From the IMG/VR virus record IMGVR_UViG_3300045988_002049: DNA of 18,120 nt. One strand, given 5' to 3'. The position numbers were made by a program, and so were the translations under genes. This DNA is from a virus. Shown here one piece after another: positions 1 to 18,120 of this stretch. A model generated the notes under the pieces. The model made no database searches. It was not told the origin of the DNA and saw only the letters and a program-made list of their open reading frames with translations. Every line of letters starts with the position of its first letter. Position 1 is the stretch's first letter.

Positions 1-19
1 ACGTGTGCTCTTCCGATCT
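1..19. other. Illumina TruSeq adapter remnant (ACGTGTGCTCTTCCGATCT); not biological sequence
   Basis: Exact match to the 3' part of the TruSeq read-2 adapter. The exact reverse complement sits at the other end of the window. Confidence 0.95.
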
Positions 20-282
20 AAAAGGAGGGGAGGGGCCCCAGCAGCTAGCCTTTTTCCACAACTGCTCTGTTGTGTATTTTGTCCTTGCTCTCTGCCCTGT
101 GTTTTTCATTGTCGCTCCTGTCCTGTCTTTGTTTATCTCCTTTGTTGTCTTCTATTTTACCTGCTTTTTTTTTGTTGTCAATTTCGCGTGTTGTTTTGCG
201 TGTATTTTTTTTGTGTGTGTTGGGTGTGTTGTTTTTGTGGTGTGGTATGATGTGAGTATTAGCCGATAAGGAAGGAAGTAAA
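20..282. repeat. Left inverted terminal repeat (263 bp)
   Basis: Reverse complement of 17839-18101. Identity follows from identical ORF translations in three frames (3..269, 5..250, 70..255 versus the mirrored ORFs) plus manual comparison of 261-282. The first mismatch is at 283 versus 17838. Confidence 0.95.
243..251 (+). promoter_or_regulatory. Extended -10-like box TGgTATGAT inside the left ITR, facing inward
   Basis: TGnTATGAT lies 34 nt upstream of ATG 285 and is followed by the SD GGAAGGAAG (270-278). No good -35 was found. Confidence 0.4.
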
Positions 283-1851: not shown

Positions 1852-2961
1852 TCACTTTCTTATGCCTGATTGTTGCAACAAGCCGCCAAGAATCATGCTA
1901 AACTCCGCTTTAATTTGCGGGGTTTCGAACCGTAATCTACCGACGCGATAAGCATTCAATATTTTTTGCGTCATGTCGTCGGAGCGCTTGAGCATTATGC
2001 AATTATTGTCTACAAGTCGATAATCGAACGTAAAATTACGGGTGATTTTCGGCTGTTTTTTTGTGATTATATATAGCACTTCGTCAGTGTCACTTAGTTG
2101 CTGATAAACGTTGAAAATACCGTATTCGGTGGTTTTTAATGTGAACGCATATCCGGCGTTGTTAAAATCACTAATGAGAGCATTGGCGTTGTCTCTAAAA
2201 TCGTTGTTGATTGCATAATTCGCATAATTTTCGTCGTATCTGTGCAAAAATTGCCCGAATTTGGATGTGGCAACCTTGGCGCTGAATCCGCCGTAATCAG
2301 CTAATTCCACCATAATAAACCCGTCGCAATATCGTTGATATTGCACGCGATTATCCAGCTGCGGTTTTAGATTGATGTTGAACGCGCTGAAATACGGGTT
2401 AGCCAACGTTACGGCGTTGCTGCACATGATAACGCGAACTCTATCGTTCCAGCGGTCAACCGTGTTGTAAAATTCCTCAAGCGCGGTGACTTCGCCGCCC
2501 AAGTACCGCATGTTGTCGGGGAAGATTTCATCAAAAATAATGGTTCGCACTTTGGGGTATGCGACTGATTTCACTTGTCCGGCTTGTGATAGGGCGATAA
2601 AATACCCCATGATGTGCCATGTGGGGCGCGTCTTGCCGTGCTTGTCGGTGGCGGCGTCCCGGTCGTCCATCCAGTGACATTCGGCTTGATTCCCAGATAC
2701 GCGAAACTCTAATTCCGGGTATTGCTCCGCGATATCCGCAAACCAAGTCCCTTTATTTTTCTGTTCCTCTGCCGTTCGGCGTAGGTAGATGAATTGCCAG
2801 CGTTTTTTAATCCAGTCGCCTATGACCAGCTTTTTAGCACCATAGGTCTTACCGAGGCCGCGCGCGCCGATTACAAACATCCAAGACGCGTGATATGACA
2901 GCACGCGCCCATAATCGTAATAATCACCCTCGCTTAACAGCCTTTCCATAATATTCATCAT
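1852..2961 (-). CDS. DNA encapsidation ATPase (phi29 gp16-like)
   Basis: Walker A is GARGLGKT and Walker B is IIFDE. LSYHASWMFVIGARGLGKTYG resembles phi29 gp16 LSYDRILNFVIGARGIGKSY. The start is uncertain: the track start 2973 is a TTG inside a hairpin stem, ATGs occur at 2961, 2958 and 2949, and none has an SD. Confidence 0.9.
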   Translation of the reverse strand: MMNIMERLLSEGDYYDYGRVLSYHASWMFVIGARGLGKTYGAKKLVIGDWIKKRWQFIYLRRTAEEQKNKGTWFADIAEQYPELEFRVSGNQAECHWMDDRDAATDKHGKTRPTWHIMGYFIALSQAGQVKSVAYPKVRTIIFDEIFPDNMRYLGGEVTALEEFYNTVDRWNDRVRVIMCSNAVTLANPYFSAFNINLKPQLDNRVQYQRYCDGFIMVELADYGGFSAKVATSKFGQFLHRYDENYANYAINNDFRDNANALISDFNNAGYAFTLKTTEYGIFNVYQQLSDTDEVLYIITKKQPKITRNFTFDYRLVDNNCIMLKRSDDMTQKILNAYRVGRLRFETPQIKAEFSMILGGLLQQSGIRK

Positions 2962-2970
2962 ATCATATGG

Positions 2971-3008
2971 CAACGATAAACCGGTAGATATTTACCAGTC
3001 TATCGTTG
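2971..3008 (-). promoter_or_regulatory. 16-bp stem-loop between the hydrolase and ATPase genes; strand-specific, stable only in the minus-strand RNA
   Basis: Minus-strand RNA reads CAACGATAGACTGGTA-aatatc-TACCGGTTTATCGTTG. The two non-Watson-Crick positions are G.U on the minus strand but A.C on the plus strand. Confidence 0.55.
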
Positions 3009-4284: not shown

Positions 4285-4315
4285 TATACCCCACGGCGCG
4301 GAACCGTGGGGTATA
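4285..4315 (-). terminator. 12-bp perfect stem-loop (TATACCCCACGG / CCGTGGGGTATA), a possible terminator or processing signal
   Basis: Perfect inverted repeat with a 7-nt loop, followed on the minus strand by CUAUUAUC. It overlaps a -10-like TATACT (4283-4288). Confidence 0.4.
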
Positions 4316-4407
4316 TGTTATGGGCTATGCCTCACGCCCTAATGTAATGGTGCGCCGTCCATATCCCAATACCGGCCTTGAGTCTATCTAATCCAATCGT
4401 CAAAAGT

Positions 4408-4442
4408 AATAGCCATGCCACCATTATAGCGGCATGGCTATT
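4408..4442 (-). terminator. Intrinsic-terminator-like hairpin after the fibre gene
   Basis: AATAGCCATGCC-11 nt loop-GGCATGGCTATT, followed on the minus strand by ACUUUUG. It starts 13 nt after stop 4455. The loop contains TATAAT. Confidence 0.55.
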
Positions 4443-4454
4443 GTTGATAGACTG

Positions 4455-6574: not shown

Positions 6575-7359
6575 TCTCCATAATTATGGCAGTTACCGAA
6601 AATTGTATCATAAGAGCCCCATATCTGCATGAAACACGGTTCAAGGCTCCGCACGACTTCCATGTCCACATTGATAATCGCCTGCCGGTACTCTTGAATC
6701 AAGCTCATGGCGCTCTGACTACGCCCGCTCACATGGCTCTTGCCCTTGGAATTGCTCGAATCATGCTGGTAGTCGGTTGCGCTTTGCGCCGTGGTGTGGC
6801 TGGTTGAATCCTGCGAACTGGACGCGGTGCCGGAGCTGTCCGCCTGCGATTCGTTCGCATGTGAGGCGTAGCGGGCGAAGTCGCCCACAACGCCGGTTTG
6901 CGGCACGTCACTATCGAAACTCTTGGACGTGGTGGTACTGGAATTATCCGACTTGGACGTGCTGGAACTGGTCGAATCCTGCGTACTGGACGCTTTGCCG
7001 GACGACTGGGATTCGCTGCCGCTCTCGCTGTCCGTCGTCATATCCATAGAATCCAACGGGTTATATTCCATGTCCAACGTCCGATAGCGTTCATTAAAAT
7101 ATGGCATGATTTCCGCCATAGTCATTCCCAAGTAGAAAATGAACTGTTGGGCGGTTTCCTGACCGATTTCCCTTAATGCGTAATGGCGGACGATTTTCTC
7201 GTTCAACTCTGCGCGGTGAGATTCGTTGTAAATCGGGTAATAGTCGGCGCTAAGGTGCAGCTTGTCGTCGGTATCATAGCCGAACGCAATAAGATTGCCG
7301 AGGGTTTCGGTGTATTCTCCCGGCGTCGCCATCGCATAGGCGCTAAAATCCTGTGTCAC
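6571..7359 (-). CDS. Lower collar protein (phi29 gp11-like) with a Ser/Thr/Asp-rich insertion
   Basis: YPIYNESHRAELNEKIVRHYALREIGQETAQQFIFYLGMTMAEIMPYFNERY matches the motif I recall from lower-collar proteins of small podophages. The GTG start overlaps the portal stop (GTGA), with SD GGAGGTG. It sits directly after the portal, as in phi29. Confidence 0.7.
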   Translation of the reverse strand: MTQDFSAYAMATPGEYTETLGNLIAFGYDTDDKLHLSADYYPIYNESHRAELNEKIVRHYALREIGQETAQQFIFYLGMTMAEIMPYFNERYRTLDMEYNPLDSMDMTTDSESGSESQSSGKASSTQDSTSSSTSKSDNSSTTTSKSFDSDVPQTGVVGDFARYASHANESQADSSGTASSSQDSTSHTTAQSATDYQHDSSNSKGKSHVSGRSQSAMSLIQEYRQAIINVDMEVVRSLEPCFMQIWGSYDTIFGNCHNYGE

Positions 7360-8309
7360 AATACACCTCCGATACCCGCGTCATATGATGCGGGCATATC
7401 AATGTCCGTCGTGCCGCTTGCGCTCGAATCGAGCGCGTTTGGTACGCCGGAGCTTTGCGCGTCCGCATACTCGACCCACACGTTCAATTGCGGCCACAAT
7501 CGGTTAATCTCAGTTGCCGCAGCCTGCCGCGCCTTGAGGAAGCTCAGGCGGAACACGTCTACTTTCTCGTTGGCTTGCGCCACTTCATCCGAAATAAGCC
7601 GTTCTTTCTTCTCTGTGCCAGACGATTGGATGCCGAGATATCCCAGCACCTCGTTAGTCACCTGCGCTTTTTGCTGGACGAACTTGTCCAACAGATAAGG
7701 TGTCGTGTTGGGCCACGGTTGGAACATGCTACCGGGGTCAAGCGAGTCGTATCCGATGATATAATCCTGACCGTCCTGCCGTTGCTGAAGCATGTTCTGC
7801 ACGGTGAGTTTTGTGCGGGGGTCGGCTGTGATGATGGTCGGTAATTTCAGACTCTCCAAATTAACGTCATACGCCTTGTCGATATCGGCGAGACGCCGCG
7901 CGTACTGCCATAACGTCGGCTTGAATCCGACGCGCATTCGATTGTCCCATATCGGAATGCATTCCGAACCTGCTTTAAGCTGCCTATAATGGTAGTTGAC
8001 GCCTACCGGCTCGAAACATGTCGGATTATTATACACATTCAATCTGCCTTGATAACCCGCCTGAGTCACAAGAAACCTGCCGATACGCTTGTCCTCGAAA
8101 AACAACGCGCAACCGTACTCGCACAGACATATTTCCAACCAACGCTCATCTACAGTGGGCGGCAGTCCGCGCCAGCTGAAGCGGTTCAACGCCAGTTCCA
8201 TCAGCAAATGAAGATACATGTCATCAAGCGTGGCAGCGCGTGCTTTCGCGTAATTGCCGCGTGGATGCAACGCGCCGCCAACTCGACTCTTTTTTTTAGA
8301 CCTACTCAT
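7356..8309 (-). CDS. Portal / upper collar (connector) protein (phi29 gp10-like)
   Basis: RFSWRGLPPTVDERWLEICLCEYGCALFFED and LGIQSSGTEKKERLISDEVAQANEKVD closely parallel phi29 gp10 ([58 protein letters not shown]). At 317 aa it is close to the 309 aa of gp10. Confidence 0.95.
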   Translation of the reverse strand: MSRSKKKSRVGGALHPRGNYAKARAATLDDMYLHLLMELALNRFSWRGLPPTVDERWLEICLCEYGCALFFEDKRIGRFLVTQAGYQGRLNVYNNPTCFEPVGVNYHYRQLKAGSECIPIWDNRMRVGFKPTLWQYARRLADIDKAYDVNLESLKLPTIITADPRTKLTVQNMLQQRQDGQDYIIGYDSLDPGSMFQPWPNTTPYLLDKFVQQKAQVTNEVLGYLGIQSSGTEKKERLISDEVAQANEKVDVFRLSFLKARQAAATEINRLWPQLNVWVEYADAQSSGVPNALDSSASGTTDIDMPASYDAGIGGVL

Positions 8310-10665: not shown

Positions 10666-10708
10666 GACAAGGCCCGAAACAATCACGTGGATTGCTCCGG
10701 GCCTTGTC
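10666..10708 (-). promoter_or_regulatory. Long interrupted stem-loop immediately upstream of the tail-knob SD
   Basis: GACAAGGCCCG/CGGGCCTTGTC (11 bp), a 3x3 internal loop, then CAATC/GATTG (5 bp) with a 5-nt loop. It ends 8 nt before the GGAGGA SD. There is no U-tract, so it is not a classical terminator. Confidence 0.6.
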
Positions 10709-10722
10709 TTGCATCACATCGT

Positions 10723-10749
10723 GAGAGAGAGAGAGAGAGAGAGAGAGAG
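10723..10749. repeat. (GA)13 dinucleotide microsatellite, (UC)n in the minus-strand transcript
   Basis: GAGAGAGAGAGAGAGAGAGAGAGAGAG read directly, in the intergenic space between capsid and tail-knob genes. Its 3' part (plus strand) pairs with 10759-10770 to form a short hairpin (10745-10770). Confidence 0.95.
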
Positions 10750-10770
10750 TAGCCAACCGGCTACCCTCTC

Positions 10771-10779
10771 ATTATATCA
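10771..10779 (-). promoter_or_regulatory. Perfect extended -10 box TGATATAAT whose TGA is the capsid stop codon
   Basis: Minus strand reads acc gcg TGA TATAAT gagaggg. A transcript starting here would carry the 115-nt hairpin/(UC)n leader of the tail-knob gene. Confidence 0.45.
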
Positions 10780-12529: not shown

Positions 12530-12871
12530 TCAGTCTTCATATAAATCGTCAAACGTGCTGTAGGTGCCGTTATAGTCGTCGTCGGTCATTTCAGCCGATT
12601 CCGGAGTCGCATCGTCGTCGGGGCCATCGTTCAGTACATGGTCGGCGGCGGCGTCGCGCATCGCTTCGACGGTTTTGGACAATTCTGCCACGGTCGCCTC
12701 CAATGCGCTCAGCCGGTCGGACATGTCGGCGGTTTTGTCGTCGCCTGCGTCGTCGGGGTCGTTATCGCCCTGTGCTTCAGTCTCCGGGTTCGGCGTATTG
12801 TCGTCGGCGGTCACGTCCGGTTCGGTGTCGGGCGTGGTGTCCGGCTTGTCATCATTTTCGGTGTCGTCCAT
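12530..12871 (-). CDS. Highly acidic 113-aa protein; scaffolding-protein candidate (position of phi29 gp7)
   Basis: It lies immediately upstream of the capsid gene. A central helical segment (LSALEATVAELSKTVEAMRDAAA) is flanked by D/E/T/P-rich tails. ATG 12871 is preferred over the track GTG 12877, which is part of the SD AAGAGGTG. Confidence 0.55.
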   Translation of the reverse strand: MDDTENDDKPDTTPDTEPDVTADDNTPNPETEAQGDNDPDDAGDDKTADMSDRLSALEATVAELSKTVEAMRDAAADHVLNDGPDDDATPESAEMTDDDYNGTYSTFDDLYED

Positions 12872-12891
12872 AATCACCTCTTAAGGTAGAT

Positions 12892-12919
12892 GGCACGGCA
12901 GCAATCACGCTGCCGTGCC
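12892..12919 (-). promoter_or_regulatory. Perfect 11-bp GC-rich stem-loop 15 nt upstream of the scaffold SD
   Basis: GGCACGGCAGC-aatcac-GCTGCCGTGCC. There is no U-tract on either strand. The flanking AGCAATC / GATTGCT can form an alternative pairing. Confidence 0.6.
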
Positions 12920-13056
12920 GGATTGCTAGGCTGTGCGGGTTCCCTCGCCGTCGATGGGCGTTGGCTACGCACGTCTACATCCGACCGAATCGCCTTACCG
13001 ATTGCCTACCGGTCGGGCCACTGAATCGGCTTAGGACGCACACCCCGCTACCGGTC

Positions 13057-13065
13057 ATTATAGCA
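13057..13065 (-). promoter_or_regulatory. Perfect extended -10 box TGCTATAAT overlapping the DNA polymerase stop codon; candidate late promoter or ncRNA promoter
   Basis: Minus strand reads gtg cta TAA tga, that is TGcTATAAT. It is followed by the 180-nt non-coding structured region and then the scaffold and capsid genes. Confidence 0.5.
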
Positions 13066-14518
13066 CAAAAAAACAGCCGTCATCGTTGACATGGCGTGAC
13101 CTCGGTAGAAAATCATCGTAGGGGATAGGGGCTGTCCGATGCACGCCACTCAACCGCATGACGGTATCGCCGTCTGTTTCCACGCCGCAGTATTTGCGAT
13201 TGCCGAGAATGCGAAGTTTTTTGTAGGTGTGGTCGTTTTTCCACGCGCCCAGTTTCTTGTCGTCCGTTTCGATGTTTGCGGGCGCATCCAGTCCGTCCAA
13301 TATCATGCCGTCTGTGTCGGCGTAGAGCACGCGGTCGGCGTTCGCGTTCATCGCGCGTGACAGTATTTGCCTCCCGTAGGCGTTGACGTATGCGGCGGTT
13401 GGCAGCCATGCGAGTGAGTTGATTGACTCAGGTTTGTCTACAGTAAAATCCACACCGCCATCACCGGAAGGCTTCGGGTGAAGCATAGGCCGATAAAGCG
13501 AGGCCCCGAATTTCCCTACCAGCGAGTTTAACAATAGTTTCGCCATTTGCCGACGTTCACCGGTTGCGGTTTGTTTCACGTGAAACCATTTGTCAACATA
13601 GTTGTAATAAAGTCCATGCGATTTACGGAATTTCCAGCCGCCGATATAATCCCACACATGGACGTCATAGTTTTCCGTCAAGGTTTGCCAATCCACGTCG
13701 GTCACGGGCATGGTGACGACGCCCAACGTACTATCCAGACGTTCGCCCTCATACCCCCATACTGGTAGGATATTAGTGAGCGTCGCCGTTTTTCCCGGTT
13801 TCAGCCGCGCATCGAACGCGATAACGTCGATGTGCAGCGGACAGTCCGCGTCATAATGATATTCTCCCTCATACCATAGGGGGGAGCCTATCGGCATGGC
13901 AAAGTCTCGCATGACGCTCGGATAGAGACTATTCACGTCCCAGCTGTTGCAATCCCGATATTCGCCCGGCCTGCTGTACACTATCGCTCCATAGTACGCG
14001 GGGCGCATCCTGTGATAATCCGCTTTATCCAATGGCGGGAAATGTCGTCTGAATCCGGCGTAATCTCCGCCGATATAGTCGTACATCGCCATAGATGCTA
14101 TGGTTGTGCCCTTGAGCCGCAGGGCGTCGCATTCCTGTGCGATGTTCCATGTGGTTTCCAAGTCATCCACGCCGCCAAATGTTTCGCGTGAGACATTCAA
14201 CCCATCATCGCGCGTGATGTTGCGCACATCTATAAAATCCACGGTGATACCGCCCATGCGCACCCGGAAACTGTAGAAATGGCCGCGAATGTTGAAAGTG
14301 CCCCAGACTCCATCCTTTGCTGGATTCGATTGCAATGGCAGTCGTTTCAATAGTTGAGCGGCTATAGGCTTGATGTCCTGCCATCCGTGAGCGCACCATA
14401 CGCGCGTATGATGGTCCAGCATGGTCAATCGAATGACGGCATTCGCCGTCAATGGCGCTATACCGTCGTCCGTTAATAGTGTTGCGCCATCTGTTGCCGC
14501 CGTTCGACGCTCTCGCAT
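13058..14518 (-). CDS. Protein-primed family-B DNA polymerase (phi29 gp2-like), unusually compact at 486 aa
   Basis: Motif A is WDVNSLYPS, motif B is KLLLNSLVGKFG, motif C is LYADTDG, and KxY is GNRKYCG. Several blocks are collinear with phi29 DNAP (RVWCAHGW, FRRHFPPL, WKFRKSHGLYYNYVDKW). SD is AAGGA. Confidence 0.95.
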   Translation of the reverse strand: MRERRTAATDGATLLTDDGIAPLTANAVIRLTMLDHHTRVWCAHGWQDIKPIAAQLLKRLPLQSNPAKDGVWGTFNIRGHFYSFRVRMGGITVDFIDVRNITRDDGLNVSRETFGGVDDLETTWNIAQECDALRLKGTTIASMAMYDYIGGDYAGFRRHFPPLDKADYHRMRPAYYGAIVYSRPGEYRDCNSWDVNSLYPSVMRDFAMPIGSPLWYEGEYHYDADCPLHIDVIAFDARLKPGKTATLTNILPVWGYEGERLDSTLGVVTMPVTDVDWQTLTENYDVHVWDYIGGWKFRKSHGLYYNYVDKWFHVKQTATGERRQMAKLLLNSLVGKFGASLYRPMLHPKPSGDGGVDFTVDKPESINSLAWLPTAAYVNAYGRQILSRAMNANADRVLYADTDGMILDGLDAPANIETDDKKLGAWKNDHTYKKLRILGNRKYCGVETDGDTVMRLSGVHRTAPIPYDDFLPRSRHVNDDGCFFVL

Positions 14519-14533
14519 AATTCCATCCTTTTT

Positions 14534-15478
14534 TTAGTGTCTTGCTGCGCTGGTTATCCATTCGTCAAGTCGTGTCCCTACATCTCCCGCGTCTGCTTTA
14601 GTCTCCCATTTATGCGCCTTATCATTATACCATGTTGCCTCGCGCACTACGGTGCTGAAATTCGTGTTGTTTATCAGCCATCGTTTCTGACGGTTCGACA
14701 AGGCGGCGAATCTTTGAGCCACGCTAAAGTCGAACGCTTCAAGCTGTTGCGCGACCTTATCAAAATCCGAAACACCCTCGTTCTCGGGAATACGCCTAGT
14801 TCCCGTGCGTAATGGCGCACGTCCTACAAGTCCGGCGTATTCAAGCATCTCCCGTTCAAGTTTCCTACGACTTCCCCCTCGCATCATCGCGCGTGCATGG
14901 CTTATACCACGCTCTGTGCCGAACACGTTCGCACGGCTTCGCATGAGTTCGTCACGTGCTGAGCCGCCGACCGTGTGTGTGCCTAACACGTCGTACGGAG
15001 ATTCCCCAGCGCGTTCCATTTCACGCATTTCACCCACGGTATAGCGGGCCATGCTCAGCGCCTCGAATTGTTTAGCACGCTTGATTTTCTCCCGTGCCTC
15101 GACTCGGCGGCGCTGCTGCTGCCGTAATGTTTTCCGACGTTTCGACGGAGCTGCGGCAATTTCCGCATCGCTTATTAGAGGGCGCGACGCCATTTCACGG
15201 TCAAGTTTCGTGACATGGACGTCGGGGACAACCTGATACGGTTCATTATCTCGCGCCCTTAAGGCTTGCTGTTGTTCTCCAAATTCCTGCCCGATACGTC
15301 GTGCTACCTGTTCAAGCTGTTGGGCACTGAGGTTTCCTAAAAACGTTTCAGTGATTCGTTTAGGGAGTCGTCCGGTACTGTAGTCTCTGACTGCCCGTTC
15401 TCGGCGTACCTGTGCCGACCTGATTGCGGCGTTGCGTTTCAGATTGTCAGCGCGTCGGCGGTTTTTGCGTTTTGCCAC
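14534..15478 (-). CDS. Terminal protein candidate (314 aa, strongly basic N-terminus)
   Basis: It lies directly upstream of the protein-primed polymerase, as in phi29 and Cp-1. The N-terminus AKRKNRRRADNLKRN and a second KRRKTLRQQQRRR block are basic. No sequence motif was recognised. The start is set at GTG 15478 (SD GGGGGA) because the 34 codons upstream (to ATG 15580) are occupied by two hairpins. Confidence 0.6.
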   Translation of the reverse strand: MAKRKNRRRADNLKRNAAIRSAQVRRERAVRDYSTGRLPKRITETFLGNLSAQQLEQVARRIGQEFGEQQQALRARDNEPYQVVPDVHVTKLDREMASRPLISDAEIAAAPSKRRKTLRQQQRRRVEAREKIKRAKQFEALSMARYTVGEMREMERAGESPYDVLGTHTVGGSARDELMRSRANVFGTERGISHARAMMRGGSRRKLEREMLEYAGLVGRAPLRTGTRRIPENEGVSDFDKVAQQLEAFDFSVAQRFAALSNRQKRWLINNTNFSTVVREATWYNDKAHKWETKADAGDVGTRLDEWITSAARH

Positions 15479-15500
15479 GGTTCCCCCTGTGAGTATGAAA

Positions 15501-15536
15501 CACCCCTCGCCGCAAGGATGGAAACGGCGGGGGGTG
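15501..15536 (-). promoter_or_regulatory. 12-bp GC-rich stem-loop in the region upstream of the terminal-protein gene
   Basis: Plus strand reads CACCCCTCGCCG-12 nt loop-CGGCGGGGGGTG, with one position that is not Watson-Crick (T opposite G). A second imperfect hairpin lies at 15545-15570. Confidence 0.55.
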
Positions 15537-15598
15537 AGTCTGGCGGCAACATCCCTATAGGGACATTGCCATAATATCATATGGTGCGGACAATCGTG

Positions 15599-16036
15599 TT
15601 ACTTGCGCTTGTTTTCCGACACCAGTTCGAGGTCGAAGAACTTGTAGCCACGGCGACTCTTTTTTTCCACTACCTTGAGGGCAAGTGGCTGATTCCACGT
15701 GTCCGGCGTCCCGAAAATGGCGAACAGATTGCCGAATGCGTGCGCCAGCGTGGGGGAGGCTGCGGCAAAGTCGCCTTCCTCCGCGTGGATAACGACGCGG
15801 GTGGACGAATTGATTTCACCAGTCTCTTGATTGGCGACTTCGATGGCCTGCGCCAGCACGTTGGTGACGTGCAGCGGCTCGTTAAGGTGTTCGTCCACTT
15901 TATCGGCGGTCTGCATGGCGTTGTACAGCGCCATCTTGCCGTCCATCGTGGAAGTATCAAAGAAGTGGGATACGGCGTTAGTGCCGTTCGCAGAAAAATT
16001 GTTGCCGTTCGCTACGGTTAGTTCGTTGTCAGCCAT
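15599..16036 (-). CDS. Hypothetical early protein (145 aa); single-stranded-DNA-binding candidate by position only
   Basis: SD AAAGG is present. It occupies the slot just upstream of the terminal-protein and polymerase genes, where phi29 encodes p5/p6. No motif recognised. Confidence 0.3.
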   Translation of the reverse strand: MADNELTVANGNNFSANGTNAVSHFFDTSTMDGKMALYNAMQTADKVDEHLNEPLHVTNVLAQAIEVANQETGEINSSTRVVIHAEEGDFAAASPTLAHAFGNLFAIFGTPDTWNQPLALKVVEKKSRRGYKFFDLELVSENKRK

Positions 16037-17838: not shown

Positions 17839-18101
17839 TTTACTTCCTTCCTTATCGGCTAATACTCACATCATACCACACCACAAAAACAACACACCCA
17901 ACACACACAAAAAAAATACACGCAAAACAACACGCGAAATTGACAACAAAAAAAAAGCAGGTAAAATAGAAGACAACAAAGGAGATAAACAAAGACAGGA
18001 CAGGAGCGACAATGAAAAACACAGGGCAGAGAGCAAGGACAAAATACACAACAGAGCAGTTGTGGAAAAAGGCTAGCTGCTGGGGCCCCTCCCCTCCTTT
18101 T
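17839..18101. repeat. Right inverted terminal repeat (263 bp)
   Basis: Perfect reverse complement of 20-282. Confidence 0.95.
17870..17878 (-). promoter_or_regulatory. Mirror copy of the ITR extended -10-like box, facing inward (candidate early promoter of the minus-strand gene train)
   Basis: Same sequence as 243-251 because it lies in the ITR. It sits upstream of the SD GGAAGGAAG and ATG 17830. Confidence 0.4.
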
Positions 18102-18120
18102 AGATCGGAAGAGCACACGT
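18102..18120. other. Illumina TruSeq adapter read-through (AGATCGGAAGAGCACACGT); not biological sequence
   Basis: Canonical adapter-trimming string. The leading A is the A-tail added to the genomic 3' end. Confidence 0.95.

Follow-up and report, generated by a model that had tools for sequence, protein, structure and literature searches.

Comparative analysis shows that the gap between the DNA polymerase gene and the scaffold-like gene of the viral record IMGVR_UViG_3300045988_002049 encodes a conserved, strand-specific structured RNA of ~160 nt, predicted to run on the minus strand from ~13049 to 12892. In what follows, "the window" means the whole stretch of DNA that was analysed, 18,120 nt in length. 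We consider it probable that this RNA is a prohead (packaging) RNA of the type found in phage phi29, known as pRNA. The initial annotation of the window had proposed either a packaging RNA or a late-switch element at this place. The former is backed by the predicted fold, by covariation and by complementarity between two loops; the switch or operator reading did not hold up.

The gap itself (12872-13057, 186 nt) contains no plausible genes and is the largest internal gap of the genome, as had been noticed at the outset; it is followed in size by those at 4295-4454 (160 nt) and 10683-10776 (94 nt). The region, described at the outset as GC-rich, has a G+C content of 63%, vs ~53% for the genome. 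Direct reading of the sequence agrees with the initial annotation on both borders of the segment, an extended -10 box lying over the polymerase stop codon and the Shine-Dalgarno sequence of the scaffold-like gene marking the end. The motif TGnTATRRT is present in all lineages examined, although the embedded stop codon varies between TAA, TGA and TAG, and the window version, TGTGCTATAAT, is a putative promoter. The distance from the -10 hexamer to the first helix is 5-8 nt in every lineage. Within that distance, the spacer at 13050-13056 is variable (column identity 0.72), whereas the conserved block and the first helix begin at 13049 and 13048. Conservation therefore begins at the expected transcript start of the TGTGCTATAAT promoter, which is where we infer that transcription starts (Table 1).

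Conservation was assessed in close relatives from IMG/VR (~100 distinct, capsid identity 91-98%), 98 of which were used for the conservation figures, and two further clades with capsids 77-83% identical were used for compensatory changes. Across the 98 relatives, mean column identity is 0.96 in domain I (12925-13049), compared to 0.76 at the third codon positions of the polymerase gene. In the clades at 77-83% capsid identity, each helix shows compensatory changes. In an alignment of 83 sequences, 95.8% of the cells are paired, vs 31-42% in controls with the 3' partners shifted by a few columns; likewise, there are 24 double-change pairs vs 3-7, and the covariation score is 0.262 vs at most 0.071. 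When the alignment is extended across clades, 49 of the 53 pairs have double changes and 92.5% of the cells are paired. The folding energy has z = -3.6 relative to shuffled controls on both strands, and the proposed fold lies no more than 0.6 kcal/mol above the minimum free energy of the window sequence. Folding and covariation had been suggested as a check in the initial annotation, and both came out positive: all helices have covariation support, and the relatives do share a covarying structure.

The same alignments indicate the strand. There are 320 G.U cells as opposed to 26 A.C cells, and therefore the RNA corresponds to the minus (gene-sense) strand. This bears on the reading in which the region acts as DNA, either as a set of operator repeats like those bound by p4 or as a signal for replication or packaging, and the structure is incidental. 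The repeated GGTA(A)GGC(A/G)AT(T)C and GAATCG(C/G)C motifs and the site at the boundary of replication and structural genes would be in keeping with such an element. However, substitutions keep RNA pairs, and in a DNA cruciform or on the opposite strand the 320 G.U cells would read as A.C mismatches. Other clades, moreover, have kept the helices but not the repeats as such. A DNA-level element is thus highly improbable, and the p4-like operators of the initial annotation are not supported, since the ratio of G.U to A.C cells fits only the RNA sense strand.

The RNA is built from a terminal helix, a three-way junction with two arms, and a separate 3' hairpin (Table 1). The terminal helix, ~26 bp in five segments, joins the 5' and 3' ends and closes the junction; an example of compensation is the change from UGUGCG/CGCACA to CAUGCC/GGCAUG in clade C. 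The first arm starts with a helix in which five of the seven pairs have double changes and 99.7% of the cells are paired. This is the CCGACC...GGTCGG helix that had been described from the window alone, now with covariation behind it. The inner 4-bp helix of this arm covaries as well (AUCG/CGAU, CGCG/CGCG, CGUA/UACG). In the second arm, all four pairs have double changes across clades; for example, in clade C the stem is GGUA/UACC instead, with GCC retained in the loop. The junction strand has similar counterparts in distant lineages, AUGUAGAG in L347 and AUGUGAGUAGA in L257. In the 3' hairpin, 10 of the 12 pairs have double changes across clades, and the loop CGUGAUUG recurs in most lineages. 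The perfect 11-bp hairpin reported earlier is indeed there, as 11 Watson-Crick pairs plus a closing G.U around a UGAU loop.

Other elements read from the single sequence fared less well. The mutually exclusive helix AGCAAUC/GAUUGCU can form in the window sequence, but it is not conserved, most relatives having AGCAAAC (U to A), and was rejected. An inner CCGG/UCGG helix obtained by single-sequence folding was also rejected, as only CCGACCG/CGGUCGG and AUCG/CGAU covary. The direct repeats of the initial annotation turned out to be the 5' internal loop and the inner hairpin of a single arm, and its GAATCG(C/G)C repeats are two copies, each belonging to another helix.

Table 1. Features of the RNA locus and of the presumed motor partners in the window. 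Element coordinates are given for the minus strand and were checked against the sequence.
Feature	Position	Strand	Details
Extended -10 promoter (putative) TGTGCTATAAT	13057..13067	-	Read from sequence; polymerase stop TAA (13060-13058) lies inside
Predicted transcription start	13048..13050	-	7-9 nt past the -10 hexamer
Terminal helix, 5' strand (pRNA helix A-like)	13018..13048	-	GCGGGGUGUGCGUCCUAAGCCGAUUCAGUGG; pairs with 12925-12957
Helix C-like, 5' strand CCGACCG	13010..13016	-	Pairs with 12981-12987
5'-side internal loop GUAGGCA (pRNA CE loop/right-hand loop-like)	13003..13009	-	7 nt; GGC complementary to GCC of 12962-12966
Inner hairpin AUCG-GUAAGG-CGAU (pRNA helix E and E loop-like)	12989..13002	-	4-bp helix, 6-nt loop
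Helix C-like, 3' strand CGGUCGG	12981..12987	-	Covariation
Three-way junction strand AUGUAGACGU	12971..12980	-	Near-invariant in clade A
Second hairpin GCGU-AGCCA-ACGC (pRNA helix D and D loop/left-hand loop-like)	12958..12970	-	5-nt loop 12962-12966
Terminal helix, 3' strand	12925..12957	-	CCAUCGACGGCGAGGGAACCCGCACAGCCUAGC; covariation
Linker AAUCC	12920..12924	-	
3' hairpin, conserved loop CGUGAUUG (pRNA domain II-like)	12892..12919	-	12-bp stem; terminator-derived
Shine-Dalgarno GAGG (12880-12877) and ATG (12871-12869) of scaffold-like gene	12869..12880	-	GAGG-N5-ATG; first late gene
Connector (phi29 gp10 family)	7356..8309	-	Pfam Phage_connector, E = 4e-42; basic N-terminus MSRSKKKSRVGG (translation)
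Packaging ATPase (phi29 gp16 family)	1852..2973	-	Pfam Podovirus_Gp16, E = 9e-44, model positions 6-319/331

To obtain a pRNA reference, the left end of phi29 was scanned with Rfam, where RF00044 scores 145 bits, and the consensus of that family was used. In 5' to 3' order, it consists of helix A, helix C, a 9-nt CE loop on the 5' side, a 4-bp helix E with a 6-nt E loop (UUGAGU), no nucleotides on the 3' side, UUU, a 6-bp helix D with a 5-nt D loop (UGGUU) and the 3' strand of helix A. The covariation-supported fold of domain I in the window RNA has its elements in the same order, with the same or similar sizes.

Neighbouring pRNA molecules interact through their CE and D loops, which form 2-5 bp with each other; two G-C pairs suffice (PMC4201828, PMC12670572). 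The equivalent loops of the new family, the internal loop and the loop of the second hairpin, are complementary over 3-5 nt in 13 of the 15 lineages, with differing sequences: GGC/GCC in the window clade (clade A), UGGCA/UGCCA in clade C, GACUA/UAGUC in L327 and L329, GAC/GUC plus a G.U in L328, ACC/GGU in L336 and BadAztec1, UCA/UGA in L347, GUU/AAC in L348, UUGC/GCAA in L349, ACCAC/GUGGU in BD811P2, GCCA/UGGC in BP1 and UGGU/ACCA in L257. Between BD811P2 and BP1, an A-U pair is switched to G-C in the same register. Control loop pairs involving the E loop have 0-3 nt of complementarity. Combining nine lineages, two negatives among them, by Fisher's method gives p = 0.007 against a shuffle null and 3e-4 against a composition null. 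Sequence reads alike for pairing between molecules and within one molecule, and a ring would form in the former case.

If the RNA is a packaging RNA, the following scheme can be proposed. Host RNA polymerase would initiate ~8 nt downstream of TGTGCTATAAT, and the first ~125 nt would fold such that a long helix of the 5' and 3' ends closes the three-way junction. One junction arm would carry the internal loop GUAGGCA and the hairpin AUCG-GUAAGG-CGAU, and the other would be the AGCCA-loop hairpin. Base pairing of the internal-loop GGC with the GCC in the hairpin loop of a neighbouring molecule would then result in an RNA ring on the prohead connector, the presumed docking partner of the RNA. The protruding terminal helices would hold the gp16-type ATPase, their presumed partner, as it pumps protein-primed DNA into the head. 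The 12-bp 3' hairpin would be the counterpart of domain II of pRNA, its terminator hairpin. The portal and gp16 ATPase of the phi29 type, already recognised in the initial annotation, are confirmed by Pfam matches (Table 1); the transcript start and end, ring formation, prohead binding and the packaging role are all predictions from comparative sequence data.

The reach of the family was explored with iterated covariance models, of which R1 was built from clades A-C and was followed by R2 and R3. With R1, the element was found in the polymerase-scaffold gap of phages with capsids 58-70% identical to that of the window (E = 7e-9 to 4e-5). R2 reached L349, L347 and L336, at 42-46% capsid identity (E = 8e-6 to 2e-3), and R3 added L348 (E = 2.5e-6), Bifidobacterium phage BadAztec1, exactly at the expected place (E = 0.011), and a genus with a small ribbon-helix-helix gene upstream instead of the polymerase (E = 0.003-0.006). 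In total, the element occurs at the same locus in 12 further lineages, with capsid identity down to ~42%. R1 gave no match among 80 loci of more distant genera, two of which were reached only by R3. A marginal full-length match was seen in L332 with the filters off (E = 0.029). Scans of IMG/VR with P0081 and P0281 returned the same clade-A contigs, those clades being absent from the collection.

The gene upstream of the RNA is not constant. In L257, L302 and L325, which belong to more distant genera, a small ribbon-helix-helix-like open reading frame (e.g. MAKKNITVSIDRKLDEFIEEKQW), not the polymerase, adjoins the non-coding region ~300 nt upstream of the scaffold gene. Despite an upstream reading frame of this kind, L257 and L260 retain the RNA. 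In GenBank/RefSeq, the polymerase-scaffold gap carries no annotation in BadAztec1 (L351, 2865-3042), BD811P2 (L352, 2960-3186) or BP1 (L353, 2960-3189), and it is in this gap that the RNA of these three phages sits.

The organization of the locus in BD811P2 and BP1 has consequences for how the RNA is likely to be made. In both phages, TGCTATAAT lies at the polymerase stop and is followed by an RNA of ~150 nt with the same layout, ending in a terminal hairpin with a GUGAUU loop and then a U tract, GUUUUAUUU or AUUUUAUUUU. The homologous hairpin of BD811P2 was called as an intrinsic terminator in the terminator scan. In addition, a second extended -10 box, TGATATAAT, is found in both between the RNA and the Shine-Dalgarno sequence of the scaffold gene. 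By these sequence features, the RNA is a stand-alone promoter-to-terminator unit in BD811P2 and BP1, and having its own transcription unit there argues against a purely cis-acting leader.

The window clade is organized differently. In the terminator scan, the window hairpin at 12892-12919 received no intrinsic-terminator call, its tail AUCUACCUUAA not being a canonical U tract. The U tract is degenerate throughout this clade, as AUCUACCUUAA in the window and ACUUACUUUAA in most relatives. There is also no space for a separate promoter in the 11 nt between the 3' hairpin and the scaffold Shine-Dalgarno sequence. Because the U tract and the downstream promoter of the relatives are missing, the RNA probably forms the 5' portion of the late scaffold-capsid transcript in the window clade, from which it would be freed by partial termination or processing.

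This arrangement raises the question of whether the RNA is instead a cis-acting 5' leader of the late operon, which might render the polymerase resistant to termination (like HK022 put or Bacillus EAR), attenuate transcription at the 12-bp hairpin or allow a protein to time late translation. It does lie directly between a promoter and the first late gene in the window clade, without a canonical terminator or second promoter, and the closeness of its 3' hairpin to the Shine-Dalgarno sequence would suit such a role. The loop CGUGAUUG is also kept in genera with a different upstream part, L248 among them, which suggests a separate protein-binding or regulatory role. Against this, an intrinsic terminator and a new promoter stand between the RNA and the late genes in BD811P2 and BP1, and no Rfam leader or antiterminator family matches: the cis-regulatory leaders, riboswitches and ribozymes of Rfam 15 gave only chance-level matches (E >= 4). 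A leader would also leave the long helix between the 5' and 3' ends and the covarying loop complementarity unexplained. We regard a leader function as the sole role to be unlikely, although leader and packaging roles are compatible and not mutually exclusive.

With respect to the 3' hairpin, L263, L296 and L323 have an extended -10-like box (TGATAGTAT, TGATATGAT) directly before a strong hairpin, which in turn is followed by the scaffold Shine-Dalgarno sequence, and the hairpin loop of L248, GGCGUGAUUGCC, is the same as the window 3' hairpin loop. Because of this box-hairpin layout and the L248 loop, the 3' hairpin may have its own function at the start of the late mRNA.

The RNA could also be a structured small RNA that acts in trans with another function, for instance by sequestering a host or phage protein as a sponge or decoy, or by regulating the early-late switch. 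The stand-alone transcription unit in some relatives could be explained this way, as could the strong conservation of sequence and structure in an RNA that belongs to no known family. However, its agreement with pRNA in layout and in the sizes of the elements would in that case have arisen by chance, and the RNA always adjoins the prohead genes (scaffold, capsid), irrespective of the upstream gene. We therefore consider this quite unlikely. None of these alternatives accounts for the full set of pRNA-like features.

Several points nevertheless weigh against a packaging RNA. First, with no clear terminator or downstream promoter in the window clade, the RNA could act there as an mRNA leader only. 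Second, RF00044 (Phage_pRNA) did not match the whole window, a 211-nt slice, L336 or any of seven related loci, either at the gathering threshold or at E <= 10, and searches limited to 200 nt gave no match either. The initial annotation had anticipated a negative result with the Rfam model; since RF00044 matches none of these loci, the RNA falls outside the curated pRNA family, and homology with the Bacillus pRNAs is unproven. The family model R3 in turn scores the phi29 pRNA gene at only 6.5 bits with the filters off (E = 3.7). Three-way-junction RNAs are common, and the resemblance to the Bacillus pRNAs is possibly due to convergence or mere likeness. Third, the gene position is different: the new gene is internal, between polymerase and scaffold, co-oriented with the late genes and directly upstream of them, whereas the phi29 pRNA gene is at the left genome end and is transcribed outward. 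Fourth, the assignment of the relatives is uneven. BD811P2 and BP1, as well as L334, were assigned by synteny and manual parsing by eye, and the covariance model with filters off finds only the terminal hairpin in BP1 (E = 0.029) and a partial match in BD811P2 (E = 0.19). The alignments across clades had been fitted to the model, and this fitting is biased towards the structure. Finally, the loops for the complementarity test were defined by hand, complementarity is 2 nt in L331 and nil in L334 (both kept as negatives), and the window taken alone has three G-C pairs, with p ~0.18.

The match of R3 to the phi29 pRNA gene (L337 144-325, minus) is its only one in the phi29 left end and is on the correct strand; it is suggestive, not significant.

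Taking these points together, we still favour a packaging RNA. We lean only slightly towards a broader proposal in which all of the following hold: that this is the first genuine prohead RNA outside the Bacillus phages (Salasmaviridae), that it represents a large unannotated family in phi29-like phages of Bifidobacterium and the gut, that the motor RNA is ancestral to a much wider phi29-like lineage, and that in the window clade it has been fused to the late operon as its 5' leader.

The genomic setting is that of a phi29-like podophage. The window is a complete linear genome with inverted terminal repeats and with all genes on the minus strand. Read from 18120 to 1, the genes are small early reading frames, a phi29-type single-stranded DNA-binding protein (SSB; 15599-16036), a 348-aa reading frame, a family-B DNA polymerase (13058-14518), and then, after the gap, an acidic 114-aa scaffold-like protein, the Phi29_MCP capsid protein, a gp9-like tail knob, the gp10 connector, the lower collar, lysis and tail genes, and the gp16 packaging ATPase. 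The capsid protein matches Phi29_MCP with E = 6e-86, and matches to DNA_pol_B_2 and to the Phi29 SSB family are also present. At 486 aa, the polymerase is comparable to those of relatives (474-496 aa), vs 575 aa in phi29, and it matches DNA_pol_B_2 only from model position 173. The 348-aa reading frame (14534-15580) upstream of the polymerase has no family match; it occupies the expected place of the terminal protein gene and is possibly the terminal protein. A nucleotide search of the whole window against GenBank phages gave no DNA-level match. By capsid protein, the nearest cultured phages are the Bifidobacterium podophages BadAztec1/2/4, BadAargau2, BD811P1-3 and BP1, at 36-42% identity, and therefore the host is probably a gut Bifidobacterium (Actinomycetota).

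The terminal inverted repeats are perfect over 282 bp, including the Illumina adapter ACGTGTGCTCTTCCGATCT, which forms the outermost 19 nt at both termini (window 1-19 and 18102-18120). Because the adapter-free genome ends start with AAAAGGAGG, the true length of the inverted terminal repeat is ~263 bp instead of 282 bp. Each repeat has a near-consensus TTGACA-16-TAAAAT promoter-like site facing the genome end, at window 154-181 (-) and 17940-17967 (+). The repeat was examined as a pRNA source and rejected, the predicted outward transcript of ~130 nt being unstructured (z = -1.05). The 4295-4454 gap was rejected as a source too, as a single long hairpin of terminator-like appearance. On the minus strand, this gap (z = -3.3) has a perfect 16-bp hairpin at ~4408-4442, AAUAGCCAUGCCGC-UAUAAU-GGUGGCAUGGCUAUU, followed by ACUUUUGA, which is probably the terminator after a 342-aa gene. 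The gap at 10683-10776 (minus), between the capsid and tail-knob genes, has two hairpins with chance-level, microRNA-like Rfam matches, which probably terminate or attenuate transcription behind the highly expressed capsid gene.

To our knowledge, pRNA has for almost 40 years been the sole RNA component known for a viral DNA-packaging motor, and we know of no other natural RNA that multimerises by kissing loops between identical molecules. The Bacillus phages that carry it include phi29, PZA, M2/Nf, B103, SF5, GA-1, DLc1 and others. A 2024 review described pRNA as unique to phi29 and related Bacillus phages (PMC11476376), and a structure-based search in 2025 found 12 more pRNAs, every one from Bacillus phages (PMC12670572). 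If the packaging-RNA reading is true, the RNA described here would be the first of the pRNA type outside the Bacillus phages and would found a second, sequence-unrelated family in phages of Actinomycetota. An RNA-dependent motor would then be old and widespread, not a Bacillus curiosity, and in the window clade the motor RNA and the prohead proteins would be made from one transcript. Such a family would provide a natural comparative set for sorting out which pRNA features are important, as well as new GC-rich three-way-junction scaffolds for RNA nanotechnology, and the annotation of hundreds of gut phage genomes would gain a gene that it now lacks. The reading is directly testable, because BD811P1-3, BP1 and the BadAztec and BadAargau phages have been cultured.

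Compared with known systems, the RNA has something in common with the leaders of processive antitermination, HK022 putL/putR and the EAR of the Bacillus eps operon, in being a structured RNA just past a promoter at the head of a long operon. A put RNA has ~70 nt folded into two stem-loops; EAR is a leader with a pseudoknot. Going by the described folds, neither has the helix of the 5' and 3' ends, the three-way junction or the complementary loops of the new RNA, which in relatives is also terminated before the operon. Another useful comparison is Lactococcus phage asccphi28, like the window phage a small protein-primed podophage outside Bacillus with a gp16-like ATPase (PMC7823558). The authors of the asccphi28 work report that they saw no evidence for a pRNA and that the ATPase assembles into rings unaided (PMC7823558). 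The window phage, in contrast, has a pRNA-like gene.

The closest parallel is phi29 itself. Both phages are small protein-primed podophages with a gp10-type connector and a gp16-type ATPase, and both RNAs have a domain I of ~120-125 nt, with a terminal helix of >20 bp and a three-way junction. They share the 4-bp helix E, the 6-nt E loop, the 5-nt D loop and an internal loop on the 5' side only (7 nt vs 9). Both have the extended -10 element TGCTATAAT ~7-8 nt ahead of the 5' end of the terminal helix (in phi29 it belongs to the A1 promoter and lies 7 nt before the RNA), and in both the complementarity of the CE and D loops, 2-5 nt long, varies by lineage. The 3' hairpin, a terminator in BD811P2 and BP1, resembles pRNA domain II, which in phi29 is likewise a terminator, a hairpin with U residues after it. 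Many lineages of the new family carry an E loop of the form UUGNNU (UUGAAU, UUGAUU, UUGGGU, UUGACU), near the UUGAGU of phi29, although in the window clade it is GUAAGG. Other differences are the G+C content (63% vs 41%), the junction strand (10 nt vs UUU), the absence of an own terminator and the probable fusion to the late mRNA in the window clade, and hosts that are probably Bifidobacterium (Actinomycetota), not Bacillus. Judged from sequence, then, the new RNA would have the same design and presumed job as pRNA, with an unrelated sequence, at another genomic position and in phages of another host phylum.

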